From assembly GCF_988243305.1 (NCBI RefSeq), contig NZ_OZ547136.1: a DNA stretch of 64,000 bases. One strand, written 5' to 3'. A program made the position numbers and the translations under genes. The notes beneath the pieces were generated by a model. It saw only the letters and a list, made by a program, of their open reading frames with translations. It was not told the DNA's origin and made no database searches. How positions within the stretch are numbered: position 1 is the first letter of the stretch; the number at the start of each line of letters is the position of its first letter. Positions 60,399 through 61,109 of the stretch are shown in pieces.

Positions 60399-61109
60399 TT
60401 AATCTCCTGTACGGATAAGTTCTTGTCGGAGTGAATAAGTTCCGGGAGGTAAATTACGTTCTACAATCACGCGCGGGCCAAGTTGCGTGTTCGGGGAAAT
60501 AATTCGCCCAGGCAAAATAATAACTTGTACGCCAAGGCGTGAACGCTGCCCGATATAACAACCTAATTTATCGCATCCGGTAGCGATAATTCCCTCTGGA
60601 GTTCGAACAGACACGGGCTGTTGATCCAGACGATGATTACTGGTACGTACTTGTGCGCCCAAATATGCCTGGTTTGCAACTACCGAGTCGGCGATAAAGC
60701 ATTGCGGACCAATCGTTGCTTCCGCTTCAATAACCGCATTTTTAATTTCGGTGGCGAAACCAATTTTTACGCCATTGCTGATTATTGTGCCAGGACGAAT
60801 AAACGCATAATTACCTATCAGGCAGTTTGCGCCAATCACTACCGGACCCTGAATAACGGCACCGTGACAAATACGGGTATTCGCGCCGATAACAACTTCA
60901 CCTGCAGTTTCATCAATAATTACCTGGTCTGCAATCTGAATATTTTTCTCTTTAACATTAAGCTTCAGAAAGTTTTTCAGTTCCTGTGACAGAAGGTTGG
61001 GAATAAGAGGTTGACGCTTCCACCAGTGCGGAATAGCGGGTGGGTTTGTCGCGCTGAGGTTCGCGTCCAGTAAAAAAGGCAATAAGTCCATAAATAATCC
61101 AGATGGCAT
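60399..61109 (-). CDS. yaiX: hexapeptide-repeat acyltransferase (intact; start uncertain)
   Basis: 236-aa ORF with left-handed beta-helix repeats; no internal Met downstream of residue 7; 5' region overlaps yaiP 3' end. Confidence 0.75.
   Translation of the reverse strand: MPSGLFMDLLPFLLDANLSATNPPAIPHWWKRQPLIPNLLSQELKNFLKLNVKEKNIQIADQVIIDETAGEVVIGANTRICHGAVIQGPVVIGANCLIGNYAFIRPGTIISNGVKIGFATEIKNAVIEAEATIGPQCFIADSVVANQAYLGAQVRTSNHRLDQQPVSVRTPEGIIATGCDKLGCYIGQRSRLGVQVIILPGRIISPNTQLGPRVIVERNLPPGTYSLRQELIRTGD

Follow-up and report, generated by a model that had tools for sequence, protein, structure and literature searches.

The gene yaiX was analysed in a stretch of DNA of 64,000 nucleotides (contig NZ_OZ547136.1), which we call the window. 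It lies on the minus strand within a tightly packed array. After yaiS and a gap of 9 nt comes yaiP, which overlaps yaiX by 134 nt when yaiX is read from its seventh codon (M7), and a gap of 1 nt separates yaiX from yaiO. The features are, in the direction of transcription:

63055..63084, minus strand: sigma-70-like promoter candidate TTGACA-18-TACAAT upstream of yaiS (consensus match only)
62164..62835, minus strand: yaiS, PIG-L-family deacetylase, full length, 223 aa
60958..62154, minus strand: yaiP, family-2 membrane glycosyltransferase, probably a synthase, 398 aa
60399..61109, minus strand: maximal yaiX open reading frame, 236 codons plus TAA, ATG first, unbroken (from the list of open reading frames)
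61107..61109, minus strand: M1 ATG, alternative start of yaiX, 236 aa
60399..61091, minus strand: best-supported yaiX coding sequence, M7 start, 230 aa
61089..61091, minus strand: M7 ATG, made from the yaiP codons TAT GGA (Tyr-Gly) in the +1 frame
60958..61091, minus strand: two-frame stretch of 134 nt (yaiP C-terminus and yaiX N-terminus) with synonymous suppression and substitution periodicity
61032..61034, minus strand: ATT (Ile26), possible near-cognate start
61020..61025, minus strand: TGGTGG, codons of Trp29-Trp30, ancestral N-terminus of the family
60978..60980, minus strand: CTG (Leu44), RefSeq/PGAP start of intact yaiX, 193 aa
60810..60814: ATTAC, codons 99-100 of yaiX, IS2 target that is duplicated in K-12 and empty in the window
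59624..60397, minus strand: yaiO, outer-membrane beta-barrel, 257 aa, start 1 nt past the yaiX stop

Among loci of gamma- and alphaproteobacteria with readable neighbouring DNA, the order yaiS-yaiP-yaiX-yaiO is kept in 22 of 22. A strong Shine-Dalgarno sequence for yaiO (AGGAG) is situated inside the 3' end of yaiX, and the DNA upstream of yaiS is AT-rich (30% GC at positions 63000-63499). The initial annotation had grouped yaiP, yaiX and yaiS as a trio for glycan modification. That these genes form a linked module is borne out; the module is, however, a four-gene operon which includes yaiO, and its role is better described in other terms (see below).

The intact gene and the K-12 allele

It had also been proposed that yaiX is uninterrupted here and that its K-12 counterpart is split by IS2. 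We find both to be correct. The open reading frame of 236 aa contains no IS element, and IS-free E. coli genomes are colinear with the window across yaiX. It is the ortholog of E. coli K-12 yaiX and occupies the same place between yaiO and yaiP; the K-12 region has 98.4-98.7% nucleotide identity to the window and shares the flanking genes frmRA, yaiO, yaiP, yaiS and tauA. Within yaiX the K-12 sequence has an extra 1,336 bp, that is IS2 plus a 5-bp duplication, with ATTAC on both sides, and a PGAP-annotated IS2 transposase separates the two yaiX fragments. Disruption of K-12 yaiX by an IS has likewise been reported by Hongu 2026 (PMC13058169). Whereas the K-12 yaiX' pseudogene consists of fragments only, owing to IS2, the window frame is whole and equals the published 236-aa variant. 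The published 71-aa K-12 "YaiX" corresponds to residues 166-236 of this frame, read from a GTG at 60614.

IS insertions in yaiX recur among different strains. Of 5,426 complete E. coli genomes, 4,464 nevertheless have at least 80% of the frame in one contiguous piece. The undamaged gene is the usual E. coli form and the window copy is an ordinary one, save for its probable start ~134 nt within yaiP, ahead of where the reference annotation puts it. The undamaged gene and the 236-aa variant are both in print (PMC13058169, PMC3531124), so that the intact gene, its disruption in K-12 and the long variant are already known. None of the findings on yaiX reported here majorly alters current understanding.

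Overlap with yaiP and the start of yaiX

At least three annotations of intact yaiX are in use, with 193 aa from a CTG in RefSeq and with 230 or 236 aa elsewhere. As had been noted from the sequence, residues 1 and 7 are the sole methionines. A TTG at codon 10 is the one further canonical start before the beta-helix domain, and ATG, GTG and TTG are absent from the frame between codon 10 and codon 91. The proposal that yaiX starts inside the 3' end of yaiP in another frame is thus upheld. The yaiX frame is the +1 frame of yaiP and the overlap amounts to 152 nt from M1 and to 134 nt from M7.

The +1 frame is open for 51 codons at the 3' end of yaiP. As evidence for coding this is weak when taken alone, because other open runs in yaiP comprise 145, 39 and 36 codons. 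We take the overlap as truly coding because the comparative analysis supports it and not because the frame is open. Among 64 homologs W29 and W30 are conserved to at least 90% and the consensus N-terminus is MWW. In the nine non-enteric loci an ATG or GTG immediately precedes TGGTGG without exception, and in the seven of them which have yaiP upstream the two genes overlap by 14 nt. Between the WW codons and the yaiP stop the variability at the three yaiX codon positions is 0.24, 0.28 and 0.48, that is, the substitutions follow the yaiX frame. Over the same stretch identity is 60% in YaiX versus 40% in the YaiP tail. The conservation of WW and this periodicity require that translation of yaiX starts at or upstream of W29.

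Upstream of W29 the comparison of loci points to M7. Each of the 15 enteric-type sequences of the first set has the motif (T/C)AT GGA, and an ATG at the M7 position (22 codons before WW, position -22) followed by an open frame is present in 19 of 19 enteric-type loci. These include L009, which is labelled as an Ignatzschineria metagenome bin and was counted as enteric-type for its architecture. Among the non-enterics the ATG is found at -22 in three of seven and the frame is open in four of seven (Fisher p = 0.005 and 0.02, respectively, against the first 15 enteric-type loci only). The synonymous sites of yaiP behave correspondingly. From the M7 ATG to the RY motif the synonymous differences in enterics are 0.33 versus 0.58 upstream (p ~2e-5), and in non-enterics 0.60 versus 0.60. 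No upstream block of enteric yaiP is as low, and the outcome is robust to thinning. The suppression falls mostly in the first ~9 codons past the M7 ATG, with the middle of the extension at background. Because it is so confined, it could reflect an RNA or initiation element instead of a selected peptide. Taken together, purifying selection appears to be detectable in both frames of the overlap. The conserved TNPPAIP of the yaiX extension was discarded as coding evidence, as it is merely the +1 reading of the conserved RDKPTRY motif of YaiP.

We suggest that yaiX most likely initiates at the M7 ATG at 61091, which gives a protein of 230 aa and the overlap of 134 nt; on the comparative data we hold this to be somewhat better than an even wager. 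The initial annotation had left the choice between M1 and M7. Its placement of the start inside yaiP stands, and we refine it to M7, since M1 is confined to Escherichia and a single Citrobacter. The Shine-Dalgarno sequence at M7 is weak (GGA only, -3.1 kcal/mol), and for the 236-aa variant no Shine-Dalgarno sequence was found by Hongu 2026 (PMC13058169). Expression of yaiX is therefore probably low and dependent on ribosomes which already translate yaiP.

The M7 start could have arisen in these following steps. Ancestral yaiX would start directly with MWW, as it does outside the enterics in proteobacteria and candidate phyla, and would overlap yaiP by just 14 nt where yaiP is upstream. In the enterobacterial lineage the MWW start codon may have disappeared or moved, and the stop of yaiP may have shifted downstream, which would have added a disordered and poorly conserved tail to YaiP. 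An ATG born of the yaiP Tyr-Gly codons, 22 codons upstream, would then have become the start of yaiX and provided YaiX with an N-terminal extension of ~21 residues, predicted to be disordered. In the AlphaFold2 (AF2) model of YaiX the pLDDT is below 55 at residues 1-27 and at least 90 at residues 41-230, with a helix at residues 42-47; in the YaiP model it is below 50 in the tail (residues 370-398).

Such a history would resemble overprinting by start-codon relocation. Two frames are used over 134 nt, the older frame (yaiP) is suppressed at synonymous sites and disorder is predicted for the newer YaiX extension. The case differs in that an existing gene would be extended at its N-terminus and no new gene would be created. 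In the 3' half of this overlap, moreover, the YaiP tail appears to be the passenger frame. The yaiP-yaiX junction could thus serve as a compact example of a start codon that migrates into the upstream gene and leaves a dual-coding stretch.

Alternative readings of the yaiX frame

Translation could instead begin close to the ancestral site at a near-cognate codon, namely the ATT of Ile26 (61034) three codons before WW, which would yield ~211 aa and an overlap of 77 nt. In the first 15-16 enteric loci the codon near -3 is ATT in nine, ATG in four, ATA in two and TTG in one, all of them initiation-capable or near-cognate; a codon of this set is present in 15 of the first 15 enteric-type loci and in three of four later loci (L027 was not read). 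Several enterics keep an ATG two to four codons before WW, and the E. coli ATT stands at the matching position. All 14 enterics compared share the yaiP codon TAT which creates this ATT, whereas four of seven non-enterics have TAC. AUU and AUA starts are, however, rare and weak in E. coli, and upstream of the ATT there is no Shine-Dalgarno match in CCCACCCGC. Isoleucine, methionine and leucine at this position fit an ordinary conserved hydrophobic residue equally well. Nor would a start at Ile26 account for synonymous sites being so strongly suppressed around the -22 ATG and over the nine codons that follow. We consider such a start unlikely.

The M1 ATG (61109) would yield 236 aa with an overlap of 152 nt, as given by the initial annotation and by KEGG-type annotation. 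No ATG precedes it in the frame, and the 236-aa variant was active in an ampicillin assay when expressed from a plasmid (PMC13058169). This ATG is, however, limited to Escherichia (the window, E. whittamii) and C. cronae, the other enterics having codons for Thr, Ile or others in its place, and it lacks a Shine-Dalgarno match (+0.9 kcal/mol). Gene calls also speak against it; the largest YaiX cluster (1,737 members) starts at M7, and the other E. coli-type clusters of 201-230 aa have 1-10 members. A start at M1 is in our view quite improbable.

The RefSeq model starts at the CTG at 60980 and produces 193 aa with an overlap of 23 nt and an untranslated upstream frame. This non-ATG codon also lies inside yaiP, so that even here the start is not downstream of the yaiP stop, an arrangement that would have spoken against the initial annotation. 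PGAP places the start at this codon in many genomes, the corresponding codon in other enterics is start-capable (GTG, TTG or ATG), and its proximity to the yaiP stop would suit translational coupling. Yet E. coli initiates very poorly at CTG, and the AGGAA next to it abuts the codon with a spacing of at most 1 nt. A start here would drop WW, the conserved N-terminus of the family, would cut the confidently modelled helix at residues 42-47 and would place outside the gene a region in which the substitution periodicity still follows the yaiX frame. We regard this start as very improbable. The comparative evidence favours the 230-aa form over a model that removes the conserved N-terminus of the family. 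If the M7 start is right, the yaiX proteins of 193 aa that RefSeq begins at the CTG, which number in the thousands, are truncated.

Could the E. coli frame be a decaying relic, open by chance and not expressed? The Shine-Dalgarno sequence is weak or absent (our computation; PMC13058169), the AT-rich promoter region is probably silenced, and the recurrent IS insertions would suit a gene in decay. A relic would hardly, however, remain contiguous in so many genomes or retain codon periodicity and conservation across genera, and repair of the K-12 gene is said in EcoGene 3.0, after a meeting abstract, to yield a phenotype (PMC3531124). Decay is thus highly improbable. We finally reject a YaiP-YaiX fusion protein that would arise without an independent start by a +1 shift on the T-run GCC TTT TTT ACT, since this run of six T just past M7, though in the appropriate +1 arrangement and with hardly any synonymous change in the majority of enterics, is not conserved (TTT GTT in E. 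whittamii, TTC TTT in the Salmonella and Enterobacter loci, TTT TTC in L022) and is not followed by a slow codon or a stop. Homologs in non-enterics and candidate phyla, moreover, are plainly genes in their own right, each having its own start and Shine-Dalgarno sequence.

The YaiX protein and the proposed role of the operon

YaiX belongs to the hexapeptide-repeat (left-handed beta-helix) transferase superfamily PF00132; the Pfam Hexapep match scores 64.3 bits (cut-off 27). The AF2 model has short regular strands at residues 41-230 and the left-handed parallel beta-helix fold, and Foldseek matches it to ST0452, GlmU and LpxD with a probability of 1.00. YaiX resembles the acetyltransferase domain of ST0452 (PDB 2ggo, 5z09) and GlmU in fold and sequence over ~160-180 residues (34% identity to ST0452, Foldseek E = 1e-12, phmmer E = 2e-22). 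Unlike these bifunctional proteins YaiX has no nucleotidyltransferase domain, as the match is limited to profile positions 233-393 (chain residues 241-397) and YaiX comprises no more than 230-236 aa; it also has its own N-terminal segment, which holds WW. Asn331, Arg333 and Asp335 of ST0452 align with Asn158, Arg160 and Asp162 of YaiX. His308 of ST0452, which we take to be catalytic, aligns however with Pro135 in the invariant GPQCF motif. An invariant histidine of YaiX, His159, is found elsewhere, in the RxSNHR motif. Because proline stands in the place of His308, the acyltransferase chemistry of YaiX remains putative.

None of the nearest equivalog models for YaiP, YaiS and YaiX reaches its cut-off. 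YaiX stays below the curated cut-offs of TIGR03992 (129.6 versus 292.1 bits), NF041173 (118.1 versus 600 bits) and TIGR01173 (40.9 versus 366.9 bits). The nearest NCBIfam model of YaiP is PgaC_IcaA (TIGR03937; 100.9 bits, below the cut-off of 422.3), and that of YaiS is BshB1, also below its cut-off. YaiO on the other hand scores above the cut-offs of TIGR04390 (183.9 versus 32 bits) and PF19413 (91 versus 23.9 bits). The AF2 model of YaiP, with a mean pLDDT of only 76, has TM scores of 0.67-0.69 to hyaluronan synthases, 0.59 to BcsA and 0.36-0.38 to GtrB, ArnC and DPMS. Matches to PDB sequences had raised the possibility that YaiP is an undecaprenyl-phosphate sugar transferase of the ArnC/GtrB type. 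This is disfavoured, as only the GT-A half superposes on those proteins (TM ~0.37, compared to 0.69 for the whole model on hyaluronan synthases). Processive membrane-embedded family-2 synthases (HAS, BcsA, PgaC, NodC) are marked by a GT-A domain joined to a transmembrane bundle and by a QxxRW-type motif; invariant in YaiP are W245, R247, W248, R250 and W251 ("RWRRW").

From these assignments we suggest that yaiS-yaiP-yaiX-yaiO probably makes and exports a surface glycan. The term modification used by the initial annotation is less apt than synthesis and export, because YaiP, as modelled, looks like a synthase embedded in the membrane. YaiP would be a membrane-embedded, synthase-type glycosyltransferase which makes a GlcNAc-related surface glycan. 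YaiS as a de-N-acetylase in the cytoplasm and YaiX as a putative beta-helix acyltransferase could then tune the N-acyl state of the sugar or of its precursor, YaiO would be the outer-membrane component, and the product may promote clumping of the cells. In EcoGene 3.0 (PMC3531124), which draws on a meeting abstract, repair of the yaiX' pseudogene is stated to lead to vegetative clumping that needs YaiP. We put at roughly 70% the probability that the window holds the ancestral IS-free allele of yaiX as the third gene of a compact yaiS-yaiP-yaiX-yaiO operon, with the M7 start and a role in such a glycan.

The operon recalls the synthase-dependent exopolysaccharide systems, of which pgaABCD for poly-GlcNAc is an example. 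The membrane family-2 synthase of such systems would have its counterpart in YaiP, whose nearest model is PgaC/IcaA and whose predicted architecture is similar to that of hyaluronan and cellulose synthases. Alongside yaiP stand genes for a deacetylase, a predicted acyltransferase and an outer-membrane barrel, and NodC/NodB/NodA, with their logic of synthesise, deacetylate, re-acylate, offer a further parallel. Clumping is reported for the yai operon in the abstract-based entry cited above (PMC3531124). There are differences, however. PgaB is periplasmic, whereas YaiS is of the PIG-L type and probably cytoplasmic, as no signal peptide is visible. YaiO is a small barrel of 257 aa (TIGR04390) and not a PgaA-like porin, and neither PgaD nor a c-di-GMP module was seen with the yai operon.

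A more far-reaching proposal combines two parts: the enterobacterial yaiX start moved 21-22 codons into yaiP, enlarging the overlap from 14 to 134 nt and constraining synonymous sites of yaiP, and yaiSPXO is an uncharacterised, widely conserved system for a surface glycan of altered N-acylation which K-12 is unable to make owing to its lesions in yaiX and yaiS. That both parts hold together we judge to be an even bet. K-12 differs from the window also in yaiS, where codon 186 is TAG (amber) instead of CAG (62278-62280). It would thus be a natural double mutant (yaiX::IS2 and the yaiS amber) of a conserved four-gene operon, probably for a surface glycan, and because it carries both lesions, clumping and surface-property phenotypes would be invisible in the standard laboratory strain.

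The intact yaiX gene and the lesions in K-12

The initial annotation described a 236-codon reading frame for a hexapeptide-repeat acyltransferase which overlaps the 3' end of yaiP, and the ORF list confirms this as written. The gene and its neighbours are:

59624..60397, minus strand: yaiO, downstream of yaiX, YaiO barrel family match
60399..61109, minus strand: yaiX maximal ORF, 236 codons, ATG start
60958..62154, minus strand: yaiP, 398 aa, Pfam Glycos_transf_2 match
62164..62835, minus strand: yaiS, upstream of yaiP, PIG-L match

YaiX scores 64.3 bits against Pfam Hexapep (cut-off 27). 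Its frame is +1 relative to yaiP, an in-frame stop lies two codons before the first ATG, and Met is indeed restricted to residues 1 and 7 (M1, 61109; M7, 61091). The overlap with yaiP amounts to 152 nt for a start at M1 and 134 nt for M7.

A K-12 chromosome matches the window in two alignment blocks with 1,336 additional bases between them, and the annotated IS2 transposase falls within these bases. At the junctions the IS2 ends are bordered by duplicated ATTAC, corresponding to window 60810-60814 (yaiX codons 99-100). Alignment and junctions thus show what the initial annotation gave for K-12, a yaiX split by IS2, and the copy in the window is uninterrupted. The interpretation initially given was essentially right and the finding is real. 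The ORF is contiguous (one place, at least 80% covered) in 4,464 of 5,426 complete E. coli genomes and the split matches are K-12 and derivatives; an uninterrupted yaiX is therefore the rule and K-12 the exception. Hongu et al. (2026, PMC13058169) described K-12 YaiX as an IS-disrupted pseudogene, reported that many strains have a 236-aa variant, and did not find a Shine-Dalgarno sequence. Their 71-aa K-12 protein equals YaiX residues 166-236, with the GTG at 60614 as its start. The K-12 disruption and the 236-aa variant are thus already published, and the intact allele predominates. To this main point we add three things: a probable need to correct the RefSeq yaiX start, the amber codon of K-12 yaiS, and a reconstruction of the migration of the start into yaiP.

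Codon 186 of yaiS (62278-62280) is CAG in the window and in two further strains, giving a 223-aa YaiS which ends 9 nt short of yaiP. In K-12 this codon is TAG. The 185-aa YaiS of K-12 is therefore an amber truncation and, together with the IS2 in yaiX, K-12 carries two lesions in yaiS-yaiP-yaiX-yaiO. RefSeq lists yaiS as an incomplete pseudogene at two of the loci compared (L002 3626-4036, L003 3674-4036) though the 223-aa ORF is intact. Opposite the yaiS 3' end, in antisense orientation, it places ykiC (window ~62179-62298, plus strand), for a small protein of 39 aa. This looks like an artefact of the truncated K-12 protein serving as model.

Independent IS1 insertions are found in the yaiP/yaiX region of further E. 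coli strains (nucleotide matches H1, H12 and H17), one of them in a strain otherwise 100% identical to the window. These insertions suggest that the operon is recurrently inactivated.

The RefSeq start of yaiX

RefSeq/PGAP models intact yaiX as 582 nt and 193 aa starting at window 60980, a codon which is CTG (Leu44) in all sequences inspected. Four lines of evidence speak against this model as too short. Upstream of the beta-helix domain, ATG, GTG or TTG occurs in frame only at M1, M7 and codon 10 (TTG), and after these not until codon 91 (GTG). Homologs of about 50% identity are ~206 aa long and begin with MWW, aligned to His28-Trp29-Trp30 (the two Trp codons, 61020-61025, are called WW below); in a 64-sequence alignment conservation is at least 90% at both W29 and W30, and the consensus N-terminus is MWWREL. 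An ATG or GTG stands immediately 5' of TGGTGG in 9/9 non-enteric loci, which include Pseudomonas, Acinetobacter, sphingomonads, several metagenome bins and two candidate-phyla bacteria, and in all seven with yaiP upstream the overlap between the MWW start and the yaiP stop is exactly 14 nt. Between WW and the yaiP stop, variability in ten enteric sequences of the same geometry is 0.24, 0.28 and 0.48 at yaiX codon positions 1, 2 and 3; the variable site is therefore the wobble position of yaiX, not that of yaiP. Identity over this stretch is 60% for YaiX and 40% for the YaiP tail. Judged from these alignments, it is the yaiX frame that is under selection well 5' of Leu44. The AlphaFold2 model of YaiX has a mean pLDDT of 86 (at least 90 from residue 41, below 55 at residues 1-27), and the RefSeq start would sever its helix 42-47.

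A probable migration of the start into yaiP

The 19 enteric-type loci are without the ancestral start codon, E. coli having CAC there, and their yaiP stop is displaced to 17-83 nt past WW. Some enteric lineages retain an ATG 2-4 codons 5' of WW. All 19 have an ATG 22 codons 5' of WW (M7) followed by an open frame, and the M1 ATG is confined to Escherichia and C. cronae. The M7 ATG derives from Tyr/His-Gly codons of yaiP, (T/C)AT GGA. It is found at this position in 3/7 non-enteric loci, and a stop lies between the position and WW in 3/7 (Fisher p = 0.005 for the ATG and 0.02 for the open frame, against the first 15 enteric loci).

Amino-acid conservation upstream of WW was rejected as independent evidence, as 'TNPPAIP' is the +1 reading of the RDKPTRY motif of YaiP. 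We therefore tested the synonymous sites of yaiP. Pairwise synonymous differences among enterics are 0.33 between the ATG and the RY motif versus 0.58 over the remainder of yaiP (Mann-Whitney p = 2e-5), and none of the equal-sized upstream blocks is as low. The suppression survives when each clade is thinned to a single sequence and when lineages retaining the near-WW ATG are excluded, whereas in non-enterics the values are 0.60 and 0.60. It peaks over the ATG and the ~9 codons that follow (0.11-0.18), with the middle of the extension near background.

It is possible that translation begins at a near-cognate codon, ATT for Ile26 (61034). The codon near -3 to WW is ATT, ATA, ATG or TTG in 18/18 enteric-type loci read (L027 excluded), and the Ile26 ATT is created by a yaiP TAT codon invariant in 14/14. 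No Shine-Dalgarno sequence at usable spacing was found for Ile26, M1 or the RefSeq CTG; M7 has a weak GGA match (-3.1 kcal/mol). We suggest that yaiX most likely starts at M7, yielding 230 aa and the 134-nt overlap. The initial placement within the yaiP 3' end thus stands, with the conserved M7 favoured over M1 as the exact site.

The yaiSPXO cluster and its possible function

Across the recovered gamma- and alphaproteobacterial loci the order yaiS-yaiP-yaiX-yaiO is kept. The yaiP-yaiX-yaiS trio initially seen as a module is part of a conserved unit of four genes which also takes in yaiO. In two candidate-phyla loci yaiS and yaiX adjoin a distant family-2 glycosyltransferase, without yaiO. At these loci yaiX is preceded by an AAGGA Shine-Dalgarno of its own and opens with ATG or GTG followed by TGG-TGG:

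L014 4353-6507 and L016 4363-6294: yaiS and yaiX of Kaiserbacteria and Paceibacterota, 44-51% identity

YaiS is by match a PIG-L/BshB1-like deacetylase with no signal peptide visible, and YaiO belongs to TIGR04390. YaiP reaches 100.9 bits with the closest NCBIfam model, PgaC_IcaA, below the cut-off of 422. It carries an invariant RWRRW motif, and disorder is predicted for its enteric-specific tail (residues 370-398). The YaiP model superposes wholly on hyaluronan synthases (TM 0.67-0.69) but matches GtrB, ArnC and DPMS through the catalytic domain only (TM ~0.37).

YaiX, under every curated model cut-off, is closest to the acetyltransferase domain of ST0452/GlmU (34% identity; Foldseek E = 1e-12, phmmer E = 2e-22) and, unlike these proteins, is without a nucleotidyltransferase domain. 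ST0452 His308 aligns with Pro135 (window 60705-60707) in the invariant GPQCF motif, and a separate invariant His159 lies in an RxSNHR motif. Because of these differences the active site of YaiX may differ from that of GlmU-type acetyltransferases.

Taken with the YaiP-dependent clumping reported for repaired yaiX' (meeting abstract cited in EcoGene 3.0, PMC3531124), the four family matches suggest that yaiSPXO most likely encodes a small synthase-dependent surface-glycan system. The predicted deacetylase YaiS and the putative acyltransferase YaiX would determine how an amino sugar is N-acylated.

Second, diverged copies of the whole cluster exist, some of them plasmid-borne (L005, L008, L019-L026, L029 and plasmid matches); L005 and L008 are both from C. 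braakii ATCC 51113. Such copies are often found next to chaperone-usher fimbrial genes, PapB-type regulators, type II secretion genes or transposases. It appears that the cluster is mobile by horizontal transfer and linked with adhesion loci. On a metagenome-derived enterobacterial contig (L027 1928-3001) yaiP is not called between yaiS and yaiX and its C-terminal reading frame is retained; yaiP may be disrupted there. Upstream of yaiS in the window lies a 550-bp AT-rich stretch (62836-63400; 30% GC at 63000-63499), as commonly seen at horizontally acquired loci that are silenced, with a near-consensus sigma-70-like site, TTGACA-18-TACAAT, at 63084-63055.
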